A DNA stretch of 47,678 bases from Escherichia phage Lambda_ev058, in the sequence record LR597651; one strand, 5' to 3'. This document shows, one piece after another, positions 29,151-47,678 of the stretch. Numbering within the stretch: position 1 is the stretch's first letter; each line of letters starts with the position of its first letter. Made by a program: the position numbers and the translations under genes. The notes under the pieces were generated by a model. That model was not told the DNA's origin. It saw nothing but the letters and a program-made list of their open reading frames with translations, and ran no database searches.

Positions 29151-29369
29151 TCACAATCCCCATTGTTTGTTCTTAAGTTCGATCTCCTCCTGGCAACTTG
29201 CACAAGTCCGACAACCCTGAACGACCAGGCGTCTTCGCTCATCTATCGGATCGCCACACTCACAACAATGAGTGGCAGATACAGTCTGGTAGTTCAGACG
29301 ACGCATTTTTATTGCTGTATTGCGCTGTAATTCTTCGATTTCTGATGCTGAATCAATGATGTCTGCCAT
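29151..29369 (-). CDS. TraR/DksA-family C4 zinc-finger protein
   Basis: 72-aa ORF with a CxxC-x17-CxxC motif (CECGDPIDERRRLVVQGCRTCASC), typical of phage TraR-like proteins. Confidence 0.6.
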   Translation of the reverse strand: MADIIDSASEIEELQRNTAIKMRRLNYQTVSATHCCECGDPIDERRRLVVQGCRTCASCQEEIELKNKQWGL

Positions 29370-29467
29370 CTTCCATTAATCCCTGAATTGTTGGTTAATA
29401 CGCTTGAGGGTGAATGCGAATAATAAAAAAGGAGCCTGTAGCTCCCTGATGATTTTGCTTTTCATGT

Positions 29468-29767
29468 TCATCGCTCCTTAAAGACGCCGTTTAACATGCC
29501 GATCGCCAGGCTTAAATGAGTCGGTGTGAATCCCATCAGCGTTACCGTTTCGCGGTGCTTCTTCAGTACGCTACGGCAAATGTCATCGACGTTTTTATCC
29601 GGAAACTGCTGTCTGGCTTTTTTGATTTCAGAGTTAGCTTGACGGGCAATGCTGCGAAGGGCGTTTTTCTGCTGAGGTGTCACTGAACAAGCCCCATGCC
29701 GGAAAGCATAAGCACACAGAATATGAAGCCCGCCGCCAGAAAAATGCATTCTGTTGTTGTCATGCAA
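29468..29767 (-). CDS. hypothetical protein
   Basis: 99-aa ORF, tightly packed in the leftward early operon. Confidence 0.45.
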   Translation of the reverse strand: MHDNNRMHFSGGGLHILCAYAFRHGACSVTPQQKNALRSIARQANSEIKKARQQFPDKNVDDICRSVLKKHRETVTLMGFTPTHLSLAIGMLNGVFKER

Positions 29768-29951
29768 GCTCTCTCTCGTTTGCCTCTGCTTTCGCCGCCA
29801 TCATTTCCAGCTTTTGTGAAAGGGATGCGGCTAACGTATGAAATTCTTCGTCTGTTTCTGCTGGTATTGGCACAAACCTGACTCCAATTTGAGCAAGGCT
29901 ATGTGCCATCTCAATGCTCGTTCTTAACTCAACAGGAGATGCTTTGTGCAT
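29760..29951 (-). CDS. hypothetical protein (lambda orf60a-like position)
   Basis: 63-aa ORF at the position equivalent to a lambda small ORF upstream of exo (constant offset from lambda coordinates through this block). Confidence 0.45.
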   Translation of the reverse strand: MHKASPVELRTSIEMAHSLAQIGVRFVPIPAETDEEFHTLAASLSQKLEMMAAKAEANERELA

Positions 29952-30112
29952 ACAGCCCCTCGTTTATTATTTATCTCCTCAGCCAGCCGCTGGGCTTTCA
30001 GTGGATTTTGGATAACAGAAAGGCCGGGAAATACCCAGCCTCGCTTTGTAACGGAGTAGACGAAAGTGATCGCGCCTACCCGGATATTATCGTGAGGATG
30101 CGTCATCGCCAT
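29924..30112 (-). CDS. hypothetical protein (lambda orf63-like position)
   Basis: 62-aa ORF immediately downstream of exo on the same strand. Confidence 0.45.
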
Positions 30113-30783
30113 TGCTCCCCAAATACAAAACCAATTTCAGCCAGTGCCTCGTCCATTTTTTCGATGAACTCCGGCACCATCTCGTCAAAACTCGCCATGT
30201 ACTTTTCATCCCGCTCAACCACGACATAATGCAGTCCTTCACGCTTCATACGCGGGTCATAGTTGGCAAAGTACCAGGCATCTTTTCGTGTCACCCACAT
30301 GCTGTACTGCACCTGGGCCATGTAAGCCGACTTTATGGCCTCGAAACCACCGAGCCGGAACTTCATGAAATCCCGGGAGGTAAACGGGCATTTCAGCTCA
30401 AGGCCATTGCCGTCACTGCATAAACCATCGGGAGAGCAGGCGGTGCGCATACTTTCGTCGCGATAGATGATCGGGGATTCAGTAACATTCACGCCGGAAG
30501 TGAATTCAAACAGAGTTCTGGCGTCGTTCTCGTACTGTTTTCCCCAGGCCAGCGCCTTAGCATTAACTTCCGGAGCCACACCGGTGCAAACCTCAGCCAG
30601 CAGGGTGTGGAAGTAGGACATTTTCATGTCAGGCCACTTCTTTCCTGAGCGGGGCTTTGCTATCACGTTGTGAACTTGTGAAGCGGTGATGACGCCGAGC
30701 CGTAATTTGTGCCACGCATCATCTCCCTGCTCGATAGCTCTCACGTCGATCCCGGTACGCTGCAGGATAATGTCCGGTGTCAT
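30103..30783 (-). CDS. exo: exonuclease (Red-alpha)
   Basis: 226-aa ORF matching lambda Exo as recalled ([16 protein letters not shown]...FVFGEQWR). Confidence 0.95.
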
Positions 30784-31565
30784 GCTGCCACCTTCTGTTC
30801 AGTGGCTTTTTGTTTCAGGAATCCAAGAGCTTTCACTGCTTCGTCCTGTGTCAGTTCTGACGATGCACGAATGTCGCGGCGAAATATCTGGGAACAGAGC
30901 GGCAATAAGTCGTCATCCCATGTTTTATCCAGGGCGATCAGCAGAGTGTTAATCTCCTGCATGGTTTCATCGTTAACCGGAGTGATGTCGCGTTCCGGCT
31001 GACGTTCTGCAGTGTATGCGGTATTTTCGACAATGCGCTCGGCTTCATCCTTGTCATAGATACCAGCAAATCCGAAGGCGAGACGGGCACACTGAATCAT
31101 GGCTTTATGCCGTAACATCCGTTTGGGATGCGACTGCCACGGCCCCGTGATTTCTCTGCCTTCGCGAGTTTTGAATGGTTCGCGGCGGCATTCATCCATC
31201 CATTCGGTAACGCAGATCGGATGATTACGGTCCTTGCGGTAAATCCGGCATGTACAGGATTCATTGTCCTGCTCAAAGTCCATGCCATCAAACTGCTGGT
31301 TTTCATTGATGATGCGGGACCAGCCATCAACGCCCACCACCGGAACGATGCCGTTCTGCTTATCAGGGAAGGCGTAAATTTCTTTCGTCCACGGATTAAG
31401 GCCGTACTGGTTGGCGACGATCAACAATGCGATGAACTGCGCATCGCTGGCATCACCTTTAAATGCCGTCTGGCGAAGAGTGGTGATCAGTTCCTGTGGG
31501 TCGACAGAATCCATGCCGACACGTTCAGCCAGCTTCCCTGCCAGCGTTGCGAGTGCTGTACTCAT
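30780..31565 (-). CDS. bet: recombination protein Bet (Red-beta)
   Basis: 261-aa ORF matching lambda Bet as recalled ([26 protein letters not shown]...). Confidence 0.95.
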
Positions 31566-31570
31566 CCGTT

Positions 31571-31987
31571 TTATACCTCTGAATCAATATCAACCTGGTG
31601 GTGAGCAATGGTTTCAACCATGTACCGGATGTGTTCTGCCATGCGCTCCTGAAACTCAACATCGTCATCAAACGCACGGGTAATGGCTTTTTTGCTGGCC
31701 CCGTGGCGTTGCAAATGATCGATGCATAGCGATTCAAACAGGTGCTGGGGCAGGCCTTTTTCCATGTCGTCTGCCAGTTCTGCCTCTTTCTCTTCACGGG
31801 CGATCTGCTGGTAGTGACGCGCCCAGCTCTGAGCCTCAAGACGATCCTGAATGTAATAAGCGTTCATGGCTGAACTCCTGAAATAGCTGTGAAAATATCG
31901 CCCGCGAAATGCCGGGCTGATTAGGAAAACAGGAAAGGGGGTTAGTGAATGCTTTTGCTTGATCTCAGTTTCAGTATTAATATCCAT
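31571..31987 (-). CDS. gam: host nuclease inhibitor Gam
   Basis: 138-aa ORF matching lambda Gam as recalled ([32 protein letters not shown]...). Confidence 0.95.
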
Positions 31988-32085
31988 TTTTTATAAGCGT
32001 CGACGGCCTCACGAAACATCTTTTCATCGCCAATAAAAGTGGCGATAGTGAATTTAGTCTGGATAGCCATAAGTGTTTGATCCAT
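31942..32085 (-). CDS. kil: host killing protein Kil
   Basis: 47-aa product from the internal ATG ([28 protein letters not shown]...) matching lambda Kil as recalled; overlaps gam and cIII as in lambda. Confidence 0.8.
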
Positions 32086-32218
32086 TTTTTGGGACTCCTG
32101 GCTGATTAAGTATGTCGATAAGGCGTTTCCATCCGTCACGTAATTTACGGGTGATTCGTTCAAGTAAAGATTCGGAAGGGCAGCCAGCAACAGGCCACCC
32201 TGCAATGGCATATTGCAT
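32054..32218 (-). CDS. cIII: CIII, FtsH inhibitor that stabilises CII
   Basis: 54-aa ORF below the track cut-off; translated by hand as [54 protein letters not shown], matching lambda CIII as recalled. Confidence 0.85.
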   Translation of the reverse strand: MQYAIAGWPVAGCPSESLLERITRKLRDGWKRLIDILNQPGVPKNGSNTYGYPD

Positions 32219-32290
32219 GGTGTGCTCCTTATTTATACATAACGAAAAACGCCTCGAGTGAAGCGTTATTGGTATGCGGTAACGCCGCGC

Positions 32291-32659
32291 TCAGGCGGCT
32301 TTGATAGTCATATCATCTGAATCAAATATTCCTGATGTATCGATATCGGTAATTCTTATTCCTTCGCTACCATCCATTGGAGGCCATCCTTCCTGACCAT
32401 TTCCATCATTCCAGTCGAACTCACACACAACACCATATGCATTTAAGTCGCTTGAAATTGCTATAAGCAGAGCATGTTGCGCCAGCATGATTAATACAGC
32501 ATTTAATACAGAGCCGTGTTTATTGAGTCGGTATTCAGAGTCTGACCAGAAATTATTAATCTGGTGAAGTTTTTCCTCTGTCATTACGTCATGGTCGATT
32601 TCAATTTCTATTGATGCTTTCCAGTCGTAATCAATGATGTATTTTTTGATGTTTGACAT
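32291..32659 (-). CDS. ea10: Ea10-like early protein
   Basis: 122-aa ORF at the lambda ea10-equivalent position and length. Confidence 0.55.
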   Translation of the reverse strand: MSNIKKYIIDYDWKASIEIEIDHDVMTEEKLHQINNFWSDSEYRLNKHGSVLNAVLIMLAQHALLIAISSDLNAYGVVCEFDWNDGNGQEGWPPMDGSEGIRITDIDTSGIFDSDDMTIKAA

Positions 32660-32919
32660 CTATTCATATCCTCACAGATAAAAAATCGCCCTCACATTGG
32701 AGGGCAAAGAAGATTTCCAATAATCAGAACAAGTCGGCTCCTGTTTAGTTACGAGCGACATTGCTCAGTGTATTCACTCGTTGGAATGAATACACAGTGC
32801 AGTGTTTATTAGTATGCCTGTCTTTTAACCACATCAGGCTCGGTGGTTCTCGTGTACCCCTACAGCGAGAAATCGGATAAACTCTATTCACCCCTACAGA
32901 GAGCAAAAGAGAAACGCCG

Positions 32920-33501
32920 ATGAACAACTCATGGTGGCAGGAACTAATGCATTTTTTCCTGCAAGGAATGACACTTAAACAGTTGATTCATATGCTAATC
33001 ATCCTGATCATATTGATTATTGTTATGCCTGTAAGCGTAAAAGAATGGATAAACCTGCATAATCCAGAAATCCTTCCTCATTACTGGATGTATTACATCC
33101 TGTTGTTTTGCGTTAGCTATGTGCTTAACGGCGTTGTTAATTCCGCTTATCACGCTGTGACTGTAAGAATTGAGATATTCGCTGCTCAGAAGCGCAAATC
33201 TAAAGAAGAGAAATACGTGCAAGATTTGTTTGATTCGTTAACTCTTGGAGAAAGAGCGTATTTGGCATTCGCTGTAGCCGCTAATAACCAGCTAAAGACA
33301 GAAAAGGGAAGCCCTGAAGCAATCTCATTGCTCGAAAAAGGGCTTCTTATTCGGGTACCTTCTGCTACTGGATATCCTGAAATCGACCGTTTTGTTATCC
33401 CGGAACGCTATAGAAATGAGTGCTACATTAGGTTTGCTGGGAAGAAAGACAGTCTTATGGATGAACTTATCGCTCAGGATAAGCATGGCAAAAACAAGTA
33501 A
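32920..33501 (+). CDS. sieB: superinfection exclusion protein SieB-like membrane protein
   Basis: 193-aa ORF on the strand opposite the pL operon, with N-terminal transmembrane helices (LIHMLIILIILIIVMPV, YWMYYILLFCVSYVLNG); sequence recalled as SieB-like. Own upstream region with repeats. Confidence 0.55.
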   Translation: MNNSWWQELMHFFLQGMTLKQLIHMLIILIILIIVMPVSVKEWINLHNPEILPHYWMYYILLFCVSYVLNGVVNSAYHAVTVRIEIFAAQKRKSKEEKYVQDLFDSLTLGERAYLAFAVAANNQLKTEKGSPEAISLLEKGLLIRVPSATGYPEIDRFVIPERYRNECYIRFAGKKDSLMDELIAQDKHGKNK

Positions 33502-33517
33502 TTAGCAAATGAATTTA

Positions 33518-33829
33518 TCATCTCGCCGTCAGTTGTTTTGATTTCCGGTAGCCTGCCGCGTAAATAGCTACGTTTGGCAGGCAAACACTTCCACTGCATT
33601 CATCTACTTTCTTGCAGCGAAGGCTTCCGAGTGATATTGCTTTTTCAGAAAGGCTTAACCGCTTTCTCGGGTCTTCCTGAACAGGTTCCTCACTGTCTGT
33701 GCCGAAGATCGAATCGATGATGTTGCAGATGGAATCACGCTCGATGGCCAGCTTTCTGCGCCGCTCATGACGGCGAGTTTTGGCATTTCCTGCAAATGTT
33801 GATTTTCCGTACACGATTACCGTCATGAT
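33518..33829 (-). CDS. N: N-type transcription antiterminator (P22 gene 24-like, arginine-rich motif)
   Basis: 103-aa product from MTVIVYGKSTFAGNAKTRRHERRRKLAIERD..., with an N-terminal arginine-rich RNA-binding motif. First gene downstream of nutL. Confidence 0.75.
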   Translation of the reverse strand: MMTVIVYGKSTFAGNAKTRRHERRRKLAIERDSICNIIDSIFGTDSEEPVQEDPRKRLSLSEKAISLGSLRCKKVDECSGSVCLPNVAIYAAGYRKSKQLTAR

Positions 33830-33944
33830 GTTTTCCTCATGTGAAATGGCTTTGGTGGTGATGCGCCAGATGCTGATCTTCTGGTTGCTGTCGTTACTGC
33901 TGCAATTCACATCACCCCAAACCCATCTCGTTTGGTATCTGTTC

Positions 33945-33978
33945 GCGCTTTGTCAGCGCATCATCGAAGTTAAAGAGC
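33945..33978 (-). promoter_or_regulatory. nutL: nutL (boxA plus boxB)
   Basis: Direct, on the minus strand: boxA GCTCTTTAAC (33969-33978), then boxB hairpin GCGCTGACAAAGCGC (33945-33959), which is the P22-type boxB-left sequence as recalled. Confidence 0.75.
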
Positions 33979-34268
33979 CTGCCAATCTGTTCCGTTTGGC
34001 TGCCAGCGTCCTGCTGATGGCGATTATAATGAACCAATAGTTCGATATTATCAAGAACTATAAGTACGAATTGTTTGTGGTTCATTAACTTAATGAGATA
34101 TGTTTTTGATATGTAAAGGAATTTATTTTTGTAAAGATTGAAGATTGGTCAGTAGGAGAGAAAGAATTGTTTGCTGGCGTGTTAGTTCGTGGGTTAGCAC
34201 ATGTGCGGATGTTAAATAAGGTAGACGATCGTGAGGAAAAGAAAAACCGGCGCTGAGGCCGGGTATAA

Positions 34269-35168
34269 TTATTTGATTATTTCTTTTATAAAGACTTCTT
34301 TCGGTTGGTATTTTTTATCTGATGATTTGAGCTGGTACGTTATTGTTATATCAGCACGTACAGAAAATTTACCTGCAAAATCTGATGGGTTTACGTTGGG
34401 GCCAAGAACCATATTTACTCTTCGATCTATTAATCCAGGGATAACAGCAGCCCAACCTTTCTCTGGATTGTCGAGGTCTAATGCACGGATTTCAACATCA
34501 ACATCAAAATGATCCTGAGTATATGACTCTGGTGTGAAGACAACTTCAGTTGGGGCTTTTTTAATGGTTTCAGCGGGAATGGTCACTGTACCACCCCCTG
34601 TACCTATGACCATCGTAGATCCTTCGTCTGCCCTAGCTGGGGCAAGCGTCTTAATGGAACTTTTGGCAAGAGTCTTCTTATTGGTTACCGTGCTTTCTAT
34701 GATTGCTTGAAGACGGTCAGGTGAAATATTAGCCTCACCGGCACCAATATTGATGATTGTATTGTTATTTGCTTCAAAGTGGGAGGTGTTGCTTGGAGCC
34801 ATAGCCTTAGTTGCTAGAACTAAGCCATATCCAACCAGACCAATAACAACAGCACCAACGAGAGCGTTTCTCATTTTCCCATTTCCGATCTTTGCATGAG
34901 CGCCAGCAAGAAACTTGTCCATTTCTTCTTGGCTACCAAAGAGGAGTTTAATAACAATATCTTCATAAAGGCTTCCTGCTTCTAATCGCGCAACATGCAC
35001 CGATATATCAAGGATATTAGCCCCTGTCAGTTCCTGCAAAACACCTTCTGATTGTTTTGCGATGGCCTCCCACCCTTGAAGGGAGGTAATCACATCTTTG
35101 ATGCTTACAGGTTCTTTAGTTGAATAATATATGTTTTCGGTAAAGGTTAAAGATAATTCTTGGGACAT
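34269..35168 (-). CDS. hypothetical membrane protein in the position where lambda carries rexAB (candidate exclusion/abortive-infection gene)
   Basis: 299-aa ORF directly downstream of the repressor gene on the same strand; one strong hydrophobic helix (NALVGAVVIGLVGYGLVLATKAM); AT-rich relative to cI and N; no recognised homology. Confidence 0.6.
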   Translation of the reverse strand: MSQELSLTFTENIYYSTKEPVSIKDVITSLQGWEAIAKQSEGVLQELTGANILDISVHVARLEAGSLYEDIVIKLLFGSQEEMDKFLAGAHAKIGNGKMRNALVGAVVIGLVGYGLVLATKAMAPSNTSHFEANNNTIINIGAGEANISPDRLQAIIESTVTNKKTLAKSSIKTLAPARADEGSTMVIGTGGGTVTIPAETIKKAPTEVVFTPESYTQDHFDVDVEIRALDLDNPEKGWAAVIPGLIDRRVNMVLGPNVNPSDFAGKFSVRADITITYQLKSSDKKYQPKEVFIKEIIK

Positions 35169-35297
35169 CCGAGCCCTCGCTGTTTCTTTCGATTTGCTGT
35201 GTTAAGCTAATATTTTAATATCCATGTTTCTGTTTGCTTGCAGTGTGTTTCTCACCACCATCCAAACGTACTGGTTACTAGCTATGTGATGATGAAG

Positions 35298-36005
35298 TCA
35301 TGAACTTTTCAGCCATTCCCTGGCCTCGATGTCATCTAGGTGGCGAGATTGCTTCAGAATACCAGCTACATACTCCACCTTTGCTACTTGATGATAAGGC
35401 AACGTTATTGGCCTGTGGTCTTGGTTGATGCTTGTAAATTGGTATTCTCCGTCTCTGTCATAGCCAAGAACCTTGATCATGTTGTGCCCTTCAATGGTTC
35501 TGACAAACACCTCATCACCTGGGAATACTTTGGTGTTAGGCTCAATGAGTACATATTCTCCTGATTTTATTCTGGGCCACATGCTGTCTCCTTTTACACG
35601 AAGACCAAAGGCATCTGGATCATCGCTATAAATCTTGAGCCACCCATCGCGCTCTTCGGTCATCTCGATGGCACCATCAACACCAAGAATTGCCTCACCA
35701 ACCACGCGCACTAACCCTTTTTTTAATTTGCCAACAATTGAAAAAGTATCTTCATCATTCGCTCCATTTAACGAAGTGCCGTGCTGAAGCCAAACAACAT
35801 CAACGTTTAGAAATTTCGCAAGCGCATTCATTTTTTCCTGGCGTGGTAAAGACTCAGCATTAAACCATTTGCTAACGCCTTTGGACGAAAGAGAAAGGGC
35901 ACGGGCTATGGCCATTCCCCTACCATGTTCATCAAGACCAGCTTCTTTACAGGCTTGCGCTAGCCGCTGGGCGAATTCTTTGCGCACTTTTTCATTCTGA
36001 ACCAT
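35298..36005 (-). CDS. cI: CI-type repressor (HTH plus S24 LexA-like autopeptidase domain)
   Basis: 235-aa ORF with an N-terminal HTH (GMAIARALSLSSKGVSKWF) and a C-terminal GDSM serine motif with downstream Lys, as in lambda CI/LexA. Divergent from cro. Confidence 0.85.
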   Translation of the reverse strand: MVQNEKVRKEFAQRLAQACKEAGLDEHGRGMAIARALSLSSKGVSKWFNAESLPRQEKMNALAKFLNVDVVWLQHGTSLNGANDEDTFSIVGKLKKGLVRVVGEAILGVDGAIEMTEERDGWLKIYSDDPDAFGLRVKGDSMWPRIKSGEYVLIEPNTKVFPGDEVFVRTIEGHNMIKVLGYDRDGEYQFTSINQDHRPITLPYHQVAKVEYVAGILKQSRHLDDIEAREWLKSS

Positions 36006-36083
36006 GAGTACGATACTAAAGCACTTGCAAAAACTTTCAGTTCAACCATAATGCGTACTGAAAGTACGAAAAAGGACATTCCT
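36006..36083. promoter_or_regulatory. OR/pR-pRM divergent control region
   Basis: Direct: candidate pR -35 TTGCAA (36025-36030) and -10 CATAAT (36047-36052); inverted repeat AAACTTTCAGT / TACTGAAAGTA; repeated AGTACGA motif. Confidence 0.45.
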
Positions 36084-36311
36084 ATGCAAAATCTTGATGA
36101 GCCGATTAAAGGTGTCGGCATCCCTGAAGTTGCGAAGGCTTGTGGAGTTAGCGAAAGGGCTGTCTATAAGTGGCTCAAAAACGGCTTCCTCCCTAAGACT
36201 GAGTTTTTTGGGAAAACGAAATACGCATCAAAAATCGAAGAGATTTCTGGTGGCAAATATCAAGCAAGCGAAATGCTTGAAATAAGCAAAAAGAACCTTC
36301 TGGCAGCATAA
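36084..36311 (+). CDS. cro: Cro-type repressor
   Basis: 75-aa product from MQNLDEPIKGVGIPEVAKACGVSERAVYKWLKNG..., with an HTH; first rightward gene opposite cI. Confidence 0.75.
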   Translation: MQNLDEPIKGVGIPEVAKACGVSERAVYKWLKNGFLPKTEFFGKTKYASKIEEISGGKYQASEMLEISKKNLLAA

Positions 36312-36318
36312 GTAACAC

Positions 36319-36353
36319 CGCTCTTTATCAATCTGCACCGCCGACAACGCGGT
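36319..36353 (+). promoter_or_regulatory. nutR: nutR (boxA plus boxB)
   Basis: Direct: boxA CGCTCTTTA (36319-36327) and boxB hairpin ACCGCCGACAACGCGGT (36337-36353), the P22-type boxB-right sequence as recalled. Confidence 0.75.
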
Positions 36354-36417
36354 AACTAATTAAGAACTCATCGAAAGATGCGTATTAGTGATTATTTACC
36401 TATGGAAATAGTAAGAA

Positions 36418-36717
36418 ATGGAACAAACAAATTACAGCAAACTATCACAGCGCGACGTTGATCGCGCAGAAACAGATTTACTTATCAACCTGTCAACGCT
36501 TACTCAGCGCGGTCTGGCAAAGATGATTGGCTGTCATGAATCGAAGATAAGCAGAACAGACTGGAGGTTTATAGCTTCGGTCTTGTGTGCTTTTGGCATG
36601 GCATCAGACATCAGTCCGATTAGCAGAGCTTTTAAGTATGCGCTTGATGAAATCACCAATAAAAAACGCCCGGTGTGCAAGACCGAGCGTTCTGAACAAA
36701 TCCAGATGGAGTTCTGA
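36418..36717 (+). CDS. cII: CII-type transcriptional activator
   Basis: 99-aa ORF; C-terminal ...TNKKRPVCKTERSEQIQMEF matches the lambda CII C-terminus (..TNKKRPAATERSEQIQMEF) as recalled. Confidence 0.85.
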   Translation: MEQTNYSKLSQRDVDRAETDLLINLSTLTQRGLAKMIGCHESKISRTDWRFIASVLCAFGMASDISPISRAFKYALDEITNKKRPVCKTERSEQIQMEF

Positions 36718-36749
36718 GGTCATTACTGGATCTATCAACAGGAGTCATT

Positions 36750-37649
36750 ATGACAAATACAGCAAAAATACTCAACTTCGGCAGAGGTAACTTTGCCGGA
36801 CAGGAGCGTAATGTGGCAGATCTCGATGATGGTTACGCCAGACTATCAAATATGCTGCTTGAGGCTTATTCGGGCGCAGATCTGACCAAGCGACAGTTTA
36901 AAGTGCTGCTTGCCATTCTGCGTAAAACCTATGGGTGGAATAAACCAATGGACAGAATCACCGATTCTCAACTTAGCGAGATTACAAAGTTACCTGTCAA
37001 ACGGTGCAATGAAGCCAAGTTAGAACTCGTCAGAATGAATATTATCAAGCAGCAAGGCGGCATGTTTGGACCAAACAAAAACATCTCAGAATGGTGCATC
37101 CCTCAAAACGAGGGAAAATCCCCTAAAACGAGGGATAAAACATCCCTCAAATTGGGGGATTGCTATCCCTCAAAACAGGGGGACACAAAAGACACTATTA
37201 CAAAAGAAAAAAGAAAAGATTATTCGTCCGAGAATTCTGGCGAATCCTCTGACCAGCCAGAAAACGATCTTTCTGTGGTTAAACCGGATGCTGCAATTCA
37301 GAGCGGCAGTAAGTGGGGAACAGCAGAAGACCTGACCGCCGCAGAGTGGATGTTTGACATGGTGAAGACCATCGCGCCATCAGCCAGAAAACCGAATTTT
37401 GCTGGGTGGGCTAACGATATCCGCCTGATGCGTGAACGTGACGGACGTAACCACCGCGATATGTGTGTGCTTTTCCGCTGGGCCTGCCAGGACAACTTCT
37501 GGTCCGGTAACGTGCTGAGTCCGGCCAAACTCCGCGACAAGTGGACCCAGCTCGAAATCAACCGTAACAAGCAACAGGCTGGCGTGACAGCCGGAAAACC
37601 AAAACTCGACCTGACAAACACTGACTGGATTTACGGGGTGGATCTATGA
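36750..37649 (+). CDS. O: replication initiator O
   Basis: 299-aa ORF matching lambda O as recalled (MTNTAKILNFGRGNFAGQERNVADLDDGYARL...); contains the ori iterons. Confidence 0.95.
   Translation: MTNTAKILNFGRGNFAGQERNVADLDDGYARLSNMLLEAYSGADLTKRQFKVLLAILRKTYGWNKPMDRITDSQLSEITKLPVKRCNEAKLELVRMNIIKQQGGMFGPNKNISEWCIPQNEGKSPKTRDKTSLKLGDCYPSKQGDTKDTITKEKRKDYSSENSGESSDQPENDLSVVKPDAAIQSGSKWGTAEDLTAAEWMFDMVKTIAPSARKPNFAGWANDIRLMRERDGRNHRDMCVLFRWACQDNFWSGNVLSPAKLRDKWTQLEINRNKQQAGVTAGKPKLDLTNTDWIYGVDL
37097..37225. repeat. ori: ori-lambda: four O-binding iterons plus A/T-rich unwinding region
   Basis: Direct: four ~19-bp inverted-repeat iterons (ATCCCTCAAAACGAGGGA-type) at 37097-37185, followed by the A/T-rich tract AAAAGAAAAAAGAAAAGATTATT. 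Confidence 0.85.
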
Positions 37650-38347
37650 AAAACATCGCCGCACAGATGGTTAACTTTGACCGTGAGCAGATGCGTCGGA
37701 TCGCCAACAACATGCCGGAACAGTACGACGAAAAGCCACAGGTACAGCAGGTAGCGCAGATCATCAACGGTGTGTTCAGCCAGTTACTGGCAACTTTCCC
37801 GGCGAGCCTGGCTAACCGTGACCAGAACGAACTGAACGAAATCCGCCGCCAGTGGGTTCTGGCTTTCCGGGAAAACGGGATCACCACAATGGAACAGGTT
37901 AACGCAGGAATGCGCGTAGCCCGTCGGCAGAATCGACCATTTCTGCCATCACCCGGGCAGTTTGTTGCATGGTGCCGGGAAGAAGCATCCGTTATCGCCG
38001 GACTGCCAAACGTCAGCGAGCTGGTTGATATGGTTTACGAGTATTGCCGGAAGCGAGGCCTGTATCCGGATGCGGAGTCTTATCCGTGGAAATCAAATGC
38101 GCACTACTGGCTGGTTACCAACCTGTATCAGAACATGCGGGCCAATGCGCTTACTGATGCGGAATTACGCCGTAAGGCCGCAGATGAGCTTGTCCATATG
38201 ACTGCGAGAATTAACCGTGGTGAGGCGATCCCTGAACCAGTAAAACAACTTCCTGTCATGGGCGGTAGACCTCTAAATCGTGCACAGGCTCTGGCGAAGA
38301 TCGCAGAAATCAAAGCTAAGTTCGGACTGAAAGGAGCAAGTGTATGA
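37646..38347 (+). CDS. P: replication protein P (DnaB helicase loader)
   Basis: 233-aa ORF matching lambda P as recalled (MKNIAAQMVNFDREQMRRIANNMPEQYDEKPQ...). Confidence 0.95.
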   Translation: MKNIAAQMVNFDREQMRRIANNMPEQYDEKPQVQQVAQIINGVFSQLLATFPASLANRDQNELNEIRRQWVLAFRENGITTMEQVNAGMRVARRQNRPFLPSPGQFVAWCREEASVIAGLPNVSELVDMVYEYCRKRGLYPDAESYPWKSNAHYWLVTNLYQNMRANALTDAELRRKAADELVHMTARINRGEAIPEPVKQLPVMGGRPLNRAQALAKIAEIKAKFGLKGASV

Positions 38348-38634
38348 CGGGCAAAGAGGCAATTATTCATTACCTGGGGACGCATAATAGCTTCTGTGCG
38401 CCGGACGTTGCCGCGCTAACAGGCGCAACAGTAACCAGCATAAATCAGGCCGCGGCTAAAATGGCACGGGCAGGTCTTCTGGTTATCGAAGGTAAGGTCT
38501 GGCGAACGGTGTATTACCGGTTTGCTACCAGGGAAGAACGGGAAGGAAAGATGAGCACGAACCTGATTTTCAAGGAGTGTCGCCAGAGTGCCGCGATGAA
38601 ACGGGTATTGGCGGTATATGGAGTTAAAAGATGA
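38344..38634 (+). CDS. ren: Ren
   Basis: 96-aa ORF matching lambda Ren as recalled (MTGKEAIIHYLGTHNSFCAPDVAALTG...). Confidence 0.9.
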   Translation: MTGKEAIIHYLGTHNSFCAPDVAALTGATVTSINQAAAKMARAGLLVIEGKVWRTVYYRFATREEREGKMSTNLIFKECRQSAAMKRVLAVYGVKR

Positions 38635-38659
38635 CCATCTACATTACTGAGCTAATAAC

Positions 38660-38690
38660 AGGCCTGCTGGTAATCGCAGGCCTTTTTATT
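38660..38690 (+). terminator. tR2-like intrinsic terminator
   Basis: Direct: AGGCCTGC-loop-GCAGGCCT stem followed by TTTTTATT, just after ren. Confidence 0.55.
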
Positions 38691-39401
38691 GTGCACAGAA
38701 AACCCCCAGCTAGGCTGGGGGTTCCGGAAAGCTTTCAGCTTTGAGCCAGTTATTAAAACCCCTTTTGATTTGTTAAAACACCTTGCGGTCTGGCAACTGC
38801 AAGTGTCAAACAAGAAATCAAAAGGGGGTCCCAATGGGGAACGAAAAGAGCTTAGCGCACACCCGATGGAACTGTAAATATCACATAGTTTTTGCGCCAA
38901 AATACCGAAGACAGGTGTTCTACAGAGAGAAGCGTAGAGCAATAGGCAGTATTTTGAGAAAGCTGTGTGAGTGGAAAAGCGTACGGATTCTGGAAGCTGA
39001 ATGCTGTGCAGATCATATCCATATGCTTGTGGAGATCCCGCCTAAAATGAGCGTATCCGGGTTTATGGGATATCTGAAAGGGAAAAGCAGTCTGATGCTT
39101 TACGAGCAGTTTGGTGATTTGAAATTCAAATACAGGAACAGGGAGTTCTGGTGCAGAGGGTACTACGTCGATACAGTGGGTAAGAACACGGCGAAGATAC
39201 AGGATTACATAAAGCACCAGCTTGAAGAGGATAAAATGGGAGAGCAGTTATCGATTCCCTATCCGGGCAGCCCGTTTACGGGCCGTAAGTAACGAAGTTG
39301 GATGCAAATGTCAGATCGTGTGCGCCTGTTAGGGCGCGGCTGGTAAGAGAGCCTTATAGGCGCATTTGAAAAACCTCCGGCTATGCCGGAGGATATTTAT
39401 T
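38691..39401 (+). mobile_element. IS200 insertion sequence (IS200/IS605 family)
   Basis: About 711 bp inserted in the ren-ninB spacer. Left-end stem-loop CCCCCAGC-TAG-GCTGGGGG (38702-38720), tnpA, and right-end hairpin CCTCCGG-CTATG-CCGGAGG (39374-39392). Boundaries inferred by comparison with the recalled lambda spacer; accurate to about 5 bp. Confidence 0.75.
38834..39292 (+). CDS. tnpA: IS200 transposase TnpA (Y1 HUH)
   Basis: 152-aa product from MGNEKSLAHTRWNCKYHIVFAPKYRRQ..., with the HxH motif (ADHIHML) and catalytic Tyr region; closely matches IS200 TnpA as recalled. Confidence 0.9.
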   Translation: MGNEKSLAHTRWNCKYHIVFAPKYRRQVFYREKRRAIGSILRKLCEWKSVRILEAECCADHIHMLVEIPPKMSVSGFMGYLKGKSSLMLYEQFGDLKFKYRNREFWCRGYYVDTVGKNTAKIQDYIKHQLEEDKMGEQLSIPYPGSPFTGRK

Positions 39402-39418
39402 TGGGGGAGAGGGAAGTC

Positions 39419-39859
39419 ATGAAAAAACTAACCTTTGAAATTCGATCTCCAGCACATCAGCAAAACGCTATTCACGCAGTACAGCAAATCCTTCCAGACC
39501 CAACCAAACCAATCGTAGTAACCATTCAGGAACGCAACCGCAGCTTAGACCAAAACAGGAAGCTATGGGCCTGCTTAGGTGACGTCTCTCGTCAGGTTGA
39601 ATGGCATGGTCGCTGGCTGGATGCAGAAAGCTGGAAGTGTGTGTTTACCGCAGCATTAAAGCAGCAGGATGTTGTTCCTAACCTTGCCGGGAATGGCTTT
39701 GTGGTAATAGGCCAGTCAACCAGCAGGATGCGTGTAGGCGAATTTGCGGAGCTATTAGAGCTTATACAGGCATTCGGTACAGAGCGTGGCGTTAAGTGGT
39801 CAGACGAAGCGAGACTGGCTCTGGAGTGGAAAGCGAGATGGGGAGATCGGGCTGCATGA
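39419..39859 (+). CDS. ninB: NinB recombination protein
   Basis: 146-aa product from MKKLTFEIRSPAHQQNAIHAVQQILPDPTKP..., matching lambda NinB as recalled. Confidence 0.9.
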   Translation: MKKLTFEIRSPAHQQNAIHAVQQILPDPTKPIVVTIQERNRSLDQNRKLWACLGDVSRQVEWHGRWLDAESWKCVFTAALKQQDVVPNLAGNGFVVIGQSTSRMRVGEFAELLELIQAFGTERGVKWSDEARLALEWKARWGDRAA

Positions 39860-42069: not shown

Positions 42070-42168
42070 TTAAAGGAAAAGTTGCTGTCTGGTTATCATT
42101 AGACTAATGTTTCAAATGTTAGAATCGCAACGTAGTTATGATCATATAACAGCTTGTTCCCTGATTTA

Positions 42169-42198
42169 GCCAGCCTCCCCAAAGGCTGGTTTTTTTTC
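42169..42198 (+). terminator. tR'-like intrinsic terminator downstream of pR' (Q target)
   Basis: Direct: GCCAGCCT-CCCCAAA-AGGCTGG stem followed by an 8-T run, about 100 bp downstream of Q. Confidence 0.6.
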
Positions 42199-45335: not shown

Positions 45336-45832
45336 TGTCGCCATCATTACGCAAGGCTGTAGCAGCTGCTATTGGTGGTGGGGCTGTTGCCATAGCGTCT
45401 GTGCTCATCACTGGTCCGAGTGGTGACGATGGTCTGGAAGGTGTCAGCTACATACCATATAAAGATATTGTTGGTGTATGGACTGTATGTCACGGGCATA
45501 CAGGAAAAGACATCATGCTCGGTAAAACGTATACCAAAGCAGAATGCAAAGCACTCTTGAATAAAGACCTTGCCACTGTCGCCAGACAAATTAACCCGTA
45601 CATCAAAGTCGATATACCGGAAACAACGCGCGGCGCTCTTTACTCATTCGTTTACAACGTGGGTGCTGGCAATTTCAGAACATCGACGCTTCTTCGCAAA
45701 ATAAACCAGGGCGATATCAAAGGCGCATGTGATCAGTTACGTCGCTGGACATATGCTGGCGGTAAGCAATGGAAAGGTCTCATGACTCGTCGTGAGATTG
45801 AGCGTGAAATCTGTTTGTGGGGTCAGCAATGA
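45335..45832 (+). CDS. R: SAR endolysin (phage-21-type lysozyme)
   Basis: 165-aa ORF with an N-terminal signal-anchor-release segment ([20 protein letters not shown]) and T4-lysozyme-like E..D..T catalytic spacing; matches R21 as recalled. Confidence 0.9.
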
Positions 45833-47326: not shown

Positions 47327-47678
47327 CTGTCTCTTATACACATCTCCGAGCCCACGAGACTAAGGCGAATCTCGTATGCCGTCTTCTGCTTGAAAAAAAA
47401 AATTGTCACGTACAAAGAAAGTAGCATTCCAATGGTCTATCAGGTAATCTTTAACAAAACGTTGAATACCAAAAGCGCCTACACCATCACTTGCTAAGCG
47501 GCTGTTGAACCACTTCTCACTACGGAGATGTGTAGAAGAGAAAGAATAGGATTGAGGTAACTGGGCTTGATTATAATGGTAAGATCGATAGTGTGATAAG
47601 ATTTTTTTTTTTTCAAGCAGAAGACGGCATACGAGATTCGCCTTAGTCTCGTGGGCTCGGAGATGTGTATAAGAGACA
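47327..47678. other. sequencing artefact: Illumina Nextera/P7 adapter sequences in inverted orientation flanking a ~200-bp unrelated insert
   Basis: Direct: 47327-47392 reads CTGTCTCTTATACACATCTCCGAGCCCACGAGAC + TAAGGCGA + ATCTCGTATGCCGTCTTCTGCTTG, then a 10-A run. 47614-47678 is its reverse complement (CAAGCAGAAGACGGCATACGAGAT...AGATGTGTATAAGAGACA), preceded by a T-run. These are the Tn5 mosaic end, an i7 index and the P7 sequence. Confidence 0.95.

Follow-up and report, generated by a model that had tools for sequence, protein, structure and literature searches.

A predicted P22-type N/nut antitermination set split around a 933W-type immunity region in the lambda-like Escherichia phage Lambda_ev058

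The window analyzed in this study, that is, the whole 47,678-nucleotide stretch of Escherichia phage Lambda_ev058 (LR597651), carries next to sieB a short gene N, a structured N leader and a nutL site on the minus strand, as well as a nutR site on the plus strand just after cro (Table 1). The borders of the interval 33518-33978 coincide with the N stop codon and the nutL boxA, so that it covers exactly N, its leader and nutL. Although the open reading frame list gave a GTG-initiated frame of 130 aa at 33518-33910, the N coding sequence itself is 33518-33826, and its start at 33826 agrees with both the start of P22 gene 24 and the annotation of phage 1H12. A plus-strand frame (about 33828-34040), annotated as 'hypothetical protein' in 1H12 (33874-34086 of that record), lies antisense over the N leader, nutL and pL and is probably a spurious call.

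Table 1. Features of the early region and their closest relatives. Sequence blocks were assigned from blastn searches of the window with lambda and P22 as references and from a subsequent comparison with 933W.
Feature	Position	Strand	Description
orf61 to ea10, incl. exo, bet, gam, kil, cIII	29174-32810		Block closest to lambda, 97.5%; cIII thermometer RNA recognized by Rfam
Terminator-like hairpins, left operon	32707-32686; 32267-32248	-	Candidate
sieB, N, N leader, nutL	32815-34021		Block closest to P22, 80% DNA identity
sieB	32920-33501	+	84% aa identity to P22 SieB; same P22-like DNA block as N/nutL
N gene, P22 gene-24 type	33518-33826	-	102 aa, ATG, GAGG Shine-Dalgarno 7 bases upstream
Long stem in N leader	33843-33929	-	Between nutL and N ribosome-binding site
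nutL boxB, GCGCUGACAAAGCGC	33945-33959	-	5-bp stem and GACAA pentaloop (fold); identical to P22 boxB left
nutL boxA and spacer	33960-33978	-	Core GCUCUUUA at 33971-33978, 11-nt spacer; both identical to P22
pL start motif, TCAGCAGGACGC	34006-34017	-	12-mer invariant in lambda, P22, 933W and the window phage
pL	34006-34054	-	-35 TTGATA 34054-34049, -10 CATTAT 34031-34026, predicted +1 near 34018
pL/OL, 299-aa gene, cI, OR, cro	34022-36322		Block closest to 933W
Immunity region between nut sites	34269-36311		933W-type; outside the N/nut set but sets its split layout
299-aa gene	34269-35168	-	rexA/rexB position downstream of cI; PHROG 4506 (unknown function)
cI	35298-36005	-	98.7% identical to 933W
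OR/pR/pRM	36006-36083		Operators near-identical to 933W
cro	36084-36311	+	Cro 100% identical to 933W
nutR boxA, CGCUCUUUA	36319-36327	+	9/9 identical to P22
nutR cassette	36323 to ~36400		Block closest to P22 (P22-like)
nutR boxB, ACCGCCGACAACGCGGU	36337-36353	+	5-bp stem, 7-nt loop (C.C apposition around GACAA)
Remaining nutR cassette, tR1-equivalent region	36354-36417	+	~65-72% P22-like, unlike 933W
5' two-thirds of cII	~36400-36652		933W-like
cII 3' end, O, P, ren	36653-38690		Block closest to lambda, 98.5%
Terminator-like hairpins, right operon	38660-38683 (lambda tR2); IS200C hairpins; 42168-42191	+	Candidate

Alignment of the N protein with P22 gp24 gave 70.6% identity over 102/102 residues (E 8e-38), which was unevenly distributed along the chain. 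Residues 1-42, which hold the arginine-rich motif, were 95% identical (40/42), residues 43-80 were 39% identical, and residues 81-102 were 77% identical to gp24 and 100% identical to the C-terminus of 933W N. The arginine-rich residues GNAKTRRHERRRKLAIER are the same as those of gp24 at every position, in agreement with the initial annotation, which had recognized an N-terminus of the P22 gene-24 type. Residues 14-32 match 18 of the 19 positions of the P22 N peptide in PDB entry 1A4T (NAKTRRHERRRKLAIERDT), the last one being changed from T to S; the peptide and RNA sequences of that entry were used as given in PMC11480772. A PDB sequence search with N returned nothing relevant, the library minimum being 20 residues and the 1A4T peptide shorter. 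In Pfam, N matched PF25694 end to end (1-100/100, 139.7 bits, cutoff 27.9), as did P22 gp24 that same family, and lambda N is assigned to PF11438 (N36). As the middle of the protein is only 39% P22-like, and as the central third is, by analogy with lambda N, the presumed NusA-contact region, its use of host factors may differ from that of P22.

The nutL boxB (GCGCTGACAAAGCGC as DNA) is present once in the window, with 8.6e-5 occurrences expected from base composition, and in P22 (AF217253) the same sequence sits between c2 and gene 24. P22 boxB left is the RNA of the NMR complex 1A4T (PMC11480772). The nutL boxA (GCTCTTTA) lies at the P22 spacing from boxB, and from the boxA core through five nucleotides beyond boxB 39/39 nt (100%) are identical to P22, the base just 5' of the core being G in the window and C in P22. 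In the pL transcript, the site falls 40-74 nt from the predicted start. The scans for promoters and terminators used here report consensus matches, of which the promoter matches were not above shuffle expectation. When compared with shuffles, the fold of the 207-nt N leader had z = -4.9. Its long stem shares the base with P22 but has a different apical part, the whole leader being about 31 nt shorter than that of P22. Judged by its position, the stem corresponds to the RNase III-processed hairpin in the lambda N leader and may have the same role.

The nutR boxB (ACCGCCGACAACGCGGT; core CCGCCGACAACGCGG) is likewise present once in the window (5.3e-6 expected from base composition) and is 17/17 identical to P22 boxB right, which in AF217253 sits between cro and c1. 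It follows, at the P22 spacing, a boxA that reads CGCTCTTTA as DNA, and the spacer between the two carries two substitutions relative to P22. Both boxB elements of the window have the GACAA loop. The primary paper on the requirements of P22 boxB is reportedly that of Cocozaki et al. 2008. Rfam contains no nut-site family, and its matches in 31000-39500 were limited to Lambda_thermo (cIII), an IS200-associated sRNA model and a weak partial match. A third boxA-like match at 45634-45642 was rejected as a chance occurrence, as it is located inside a coding region and is not followed by a boxB-like hairpin. The initial annotation attributed distinct peptide-RNA recognition modes in P22 to the difference between the two hairpins, a statement that found no confirmation in PMC6023938. 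According to that paper, the left and right boxB of P22 are two high-affinity elements with similar structures and differences at six stem positions; the wild-type boxB right carries a 6C-12C apposition, and the term 'alternate binding mode' is reserved for a closing-pair mutant.

With flanking genes that are 97-98% lambda and a pL start motif that is also common to lambda, it was considered whether the module might be of the lambda type and its boxB likeness to P22 superficial. A lambda-type N/nut set carries the motif MDAQTRRRERRAEKQAQW and the boxB GCCCUGAARAAGGGC. The boxB sequences of lambda itself (NC_001416) are GCCCTGAAGAAGGGC and GCCCTGAAAAAGGGC, unlike those of the window at nutL and nutR, and no lambda-type boxB was found in the whole window at up to two mismatches. 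N gave no match to the N36 family and no detectable similarity to lambda N except for a generic RRxERR core. In addition, blastn detected no similarity to lambda across 32900-36652, and lambda 34056-34395 (ral and orf28) is absent. The lambda-type reading was therefore refuted, and we give it virtually no chance of being correct. The view taken in the initial annotation, namely that both boxB elements are of P22 type and not those of lambda, was borne out by exact identity to P22 at nutL and nutR, and the alignment that it had proposed of N and both nut sites with the P22 and lambda references favored P22 throughout.

The surroundings of these sites had been described as an otherwise lambda-like early region with lambda-type flanking genes. 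The flanks (exo-bet-gam-kil-cIII and O-P-ren; Table 1) were indeed lambda-type, but the broader description did not hold, as the immunity region is that of 933W, sieB is P22-like and lambda ral and orf28 are missing. Lambda cI shows only 36% identity over 45 aa to the cI of the window, and cII up to 36652 is 87% 933W-like compared with 40% lambda-like. As the immunity region is that of 933W, a lysogen of the window phage should, judged from sequence, be immune to 933W-type Stx phages, and vice versa. The 299-aa gene downstream of cI, which is followed by a strong intrinsic terminator (34262-34247, minus strand), occupies the spot at which 933W carries stk and three other genes. It gave a sub-threshold match to DUF1206 only, PADLOC returned no match for it or for sieB, and it is a candidate for a lysogen-expressed exclusion or defense gene. 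A strong terminator-like hairpin at 36663-36693 (minus strand), antisense to the 3' end of cII, was also observed in a lambda-identical segment, at the place where the terminator of the oop RNA lies in lambda.

The immunity DNA of the 933W type keeps the two nut sites 2.6 kb apart, and both borders at which the sequence changes to that of P22 could be located. At the left border, sequence of the 933W type continues through the operators and the -10 element up to the pL start motif, beyond which the window matches P22. At the right border, the match to 933W runs past the stop codon of cro and into boxA (CGCT), gives way to P22 through boxB and is regained at the cII ribosome-binding site. The N/nut set is thus a module split by the immunity region, and with one junction at the pL start motif and the other within the nutR boxA it appears to have been exchanged as two pieces.

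Given this immunity region, a 933W/H-19B specificity class might be expected for the N/nut set as well, and the near-identity of cI and complete identity of Cro to those of 933W, together with the 933W-identical nutL boxB and last 22 residues of N, are in its favor. Only residues 81-102 of N, however, can be aligned with 933W N, and the arginine-rich motif is GNAKTRRHERRRKLAIER, as in P22, rather than the GNSRSRRRERLKAKALA of 933W. The nutR boxB is CCGCCGACAACGCGG and not UCGCUGACAAAGCGA, the nutR cassette differs from that of 933W over about 80-110 nt, and nutL has a consensus boxA at the P22 spacing, which 933W lacks. Furthermore, the P22 and 933W types were never mixed in 64 loci with this repressor. 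Membership of the 933W/H-19B class was thus refuted at the sequence level, and we consider it extremely improbable. In 933W and Stx2a_F451 the same 15-mer GCGCTGACAAAGCGC is found at nutL even though the arginine-rich motif of N differs and no consensus boxA is adjacent. As it is common to the P22 and 933W types, the nutL boxB alone cannot assign the class, and its designation as P22-type stood with respect to identity, although the sequence is not specific to P22. The diagnosis of a P22-class set is based on the sequences of the arginine-rich motif, boxA and the nutR boxB.

The inheritance of the three components was then followed in 80 IMG/VR loci whose cI is at least 98% identical to that of the window, 71 of which held an N motif, nutL and nutR and could all be classified. 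A P22-type N was accompanied by nutL GCGCUGACAAAGCGC and nutR CCGCCGACAACGCGG at 30 loci, and a 933W-type N by nutL GCGCUGACAAAGCGC and nutR UCGCUGACAAAGCGA at 33. A third type of N (motif GTAASRRRARRANLQSQE) occurred with nutL GGCUGAAAAGCC and nutR UCGCUGAAAAGCGA, both with a GAAA tetraloop, at seven loci, and a fourth (motif DDNARNRRRARRQAQREQ) at a single locus with CCCGCCGAAAUGCGGG at both nutL and nutR. No discordant combination of N, nutL and nutR was seen among the 71 loci on this repressor background: both P22 boxB elements were present in 30/30 loci with the P22 motif, and the P22 nutR in 0/41 loci with other types of N. The third and fourth sets were seen in the cro-cII and pL-N intervals of IMG/VR loci L111, L125, L135, L160 and others.

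A second set of 80 IMG/VR loci was chosen by homology to the N of the window. The core of P22 boxB right was found 821-4855 nt beyond N in 75/80 of these loci, a range of distances which indicates that several different immunity regions intervene. Their immunity types include a lambda-type cI at 95-98% identity, and their flanks consist of either lambda Red and O/P genes (at least 11 loci) or erf and P22-type 18/12. Loci L072-L087 carry a chimeric N in which the 75 N-terminal residues of P22 type are joined to a lambda-like C-terminus (ending in GRQKMKLGSKPLI or GVTCVGRQKMKLGSKPLI), pointing to recombination within N between the RNA-binding and polymerase-binding parts. At two loci, L023 and L024, a P22-type N and nutL were found with a lambda-like cI (95%) and no P22- or lambda-type nutR boxB within 7 kb; these may be rearranged or defective prophages. 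In the established model of N action, specificity is determined by the N-terminal motif and boxB, which obliges N to move with both nut sites while the rest reassorts freely, and the observed pattern of co-inheritance is as this model predicts. The pattern is a natural example of N, nutL and nutR having to be exchanged as one set despite the immunity region between them.

Two features of the contig could suggest that the N/nut set is an inactive relic of a decaying prophage or part of a misassembled contig, namely an IS200C element in the pR operon and sequencing adapter at the 3' end. The N frame is, however, intact, and together with both nut sites it is 100% identical in 10 GenBank phage records and at least 10 IMG/VR contigs. 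Moreover, the 47-kb genome is collinear with lambda and its early genes are intact, the insertion is located in an intergenic spot behind tR2, and the adapter is not part of the phage sequence. We therefore regard a relic or misassembly as highly unlikely. The IS200C element itself (705 bp, 38691-39395) sits between ren and ninB, immediately behind the tR2 hairpin of lambda and in the orientation of the pR operon, and contains tnpA (38834-39292, Pfam Y1_Tnp) and a match to Rfam STnc490 (38701-38824). It is absent from ten otherwise identical GenBank phages. With it in place, expression of Q would need read-through of the IS200C hairpins, presumably by N-modified polymerase. At positions 47328-47678, the window consists of Illumina Nextera adapter read-through (CTGTCTCTTATACACATCTCCGAGCCCACGAGAC, index TAAGGCGA and ATCTCGTATGCCGTCTTCTGCTTG, then poly-A), with the reverse complement of the adapter at the very end of the contig and about 200 nt unrelated to lambda between the pair; this segment is an assembly artefact and not phage sequence.

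The GenBank records with an identical module, whose right arms are also essentially 100% identical, include 1H12 (NC_049947, the type of Jouyvirus), Lambda_2E9, 4B5, 2G7a, ev066, ev087, ev110, ev203 and ev245. In 1H12, N is annotated as 'anti-termination protein N-like' and the nut sites are unannotated in the stretch examined. Many Stx-converting phages have the same N-terminal two-thirds of N and the same nut sites, and a match covering at least 80% of N plus nutL was found in 217/5426 complete E. coli genomes, in some of which PGAP labels the gene 'transcriptional antitermination N peptide'. That lambdoid phages are modular mosaics and that N/nut systems fall into specificity classes has been textbook knowledge since the 1970s and 1980s, and the set described here is an already known antitermination class in a known lineage, as expected from such mosaicism. 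The value of the analysis for annotation is that the true start of N has been fixed and two unannotated nut sites placed. In addition, the junctions of the N/nut exchange have been located, and in the 1H12/Jouyvirus group, structural, Red and O/P genes of lambda type are seen to occur together with the immunity of 933W and antitermination of the P22 type.

In lambda and P22, N binds boxB through an arginine-rich helix, and the resulting complex rides with RNA polymerase and suppresses terminators. The window very probably encodes a complete set for N-dependent processive antitermination of the P22 (gene 24) specificity class, exchanged as two pieces, in a genome whose structural, Red and O/P replication genes are by sequence of lambda type and whose immunity is that of 933W. 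This assignment is drawn from identity to P22, folds, positions on the transcripts and co-inheritance, from which we infer binding, the assembly of Nus factors and read-through. A promoter-like pL is located upstream of nutL, and the consensus scan placed a pR-like site upstream of cro. Upon loss of the 933W-type repressor, pL and pR would fire, the former giving a transcript with nutL, the structured leader and then N, and the latter one with nutR just after cro. The arginine-rich motif of N (residues 14-31) would bind the boxB hairpins with their GACAA loops, and boxA would be bound by NusB/NusE(S10), an 8-nt boxA being the NusB/S10 binding element (PMC3177189). N, NusA and NusG would then turn RNA polymerase terminator-resistant. 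Leftward read-through would lead to ea10-cIII-kil-gam-bet-exo-xis-int, and rightward read-through would pass tR1, cII-O-P-ren, tR2, the inserted IS200C and the nin region to reach Q.

A broader proposal can be made only tentatively and is rather unlikely. Sharing both the repressor and the nutL boxB, the window phage and 933W-type phages might be mutually immune and yet, on co-induction, cross-activate each other in the left operon only, either N acting at the nutL of the other phage but not at its nutR. More generally, N/nut sets may be swapped as split cassettes at two fixed junctions, the pL start motif TCAGCAGGACGC and boxA. If true, this would represent a built-in way to swap antitermination specificity independently of immunity.

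The closest known system is that of gene 24, nutL and nutR of Salmonella phage P22, reportedly described by Franklin in 1985. It shares with the window the arginine-rich motif, the nutL boxA core, spacer and boxB, the nutR boxA and boxB and the Pfam family, as well as the gene order sieB / 24 / nutL / pL ... pR / cro / nutR / cII-homologue. DNA identity is nevertheless limited to 80% over sieB-N-nutL and 72% around nutR, the middle of N is 39% identical, the C-terminus of the window's N is the 933W allele and its leader is shorter. The window phage also differs in its host, which is E. coli, and shows no relationship to P22 in its genes for immunity, recombination and replication. In comparison, 933W, Stx2a_F451 and H-19B have the same cI, cro, OL and OR, the same nutL boxB 15-mer, the same 22 C-terminal residues of N and the same pL start motif. 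They differ in the arginine-rich motif, in having no consensus boxA at nutL, in a longer nutR with two hairpins and the boxB UCGCUGACAAAGCGA, and in the presence of stk and other genes downstream of cI.

With lambda, the window phage shares the architecture of the system, in which boxA, spacer and boxB lie on both early transcripts and N is the first gene of the pL operon behind a structured leader, and the downstream N-controlled genes are 97-98% identical. The lambda boxB (GCCCUGAARAAGGGC) and motif (MDAQTRRRERRAEKQAQW) are different, and there is no sequence homology between the N proteins. Stx2a-converting phages such as Stx2_PV06-102 (LC616036) have a P22-type N that is 97% identical over residues 1-73, the same nutL and nutR sites and the same 933W-type cI-cro-cII; they differ in the C-terminal part of N and in the genes between pL and cI, and their genomes are otherwise those of Sepvirinae and not lambda-like. 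Finally, 1H12 and its relatives are 100% identical to the window over 33450-34050 and over 27000-47327, differing in that they carry neither the 705-bp IS200C at 38691-39395 nor the adapter tail.
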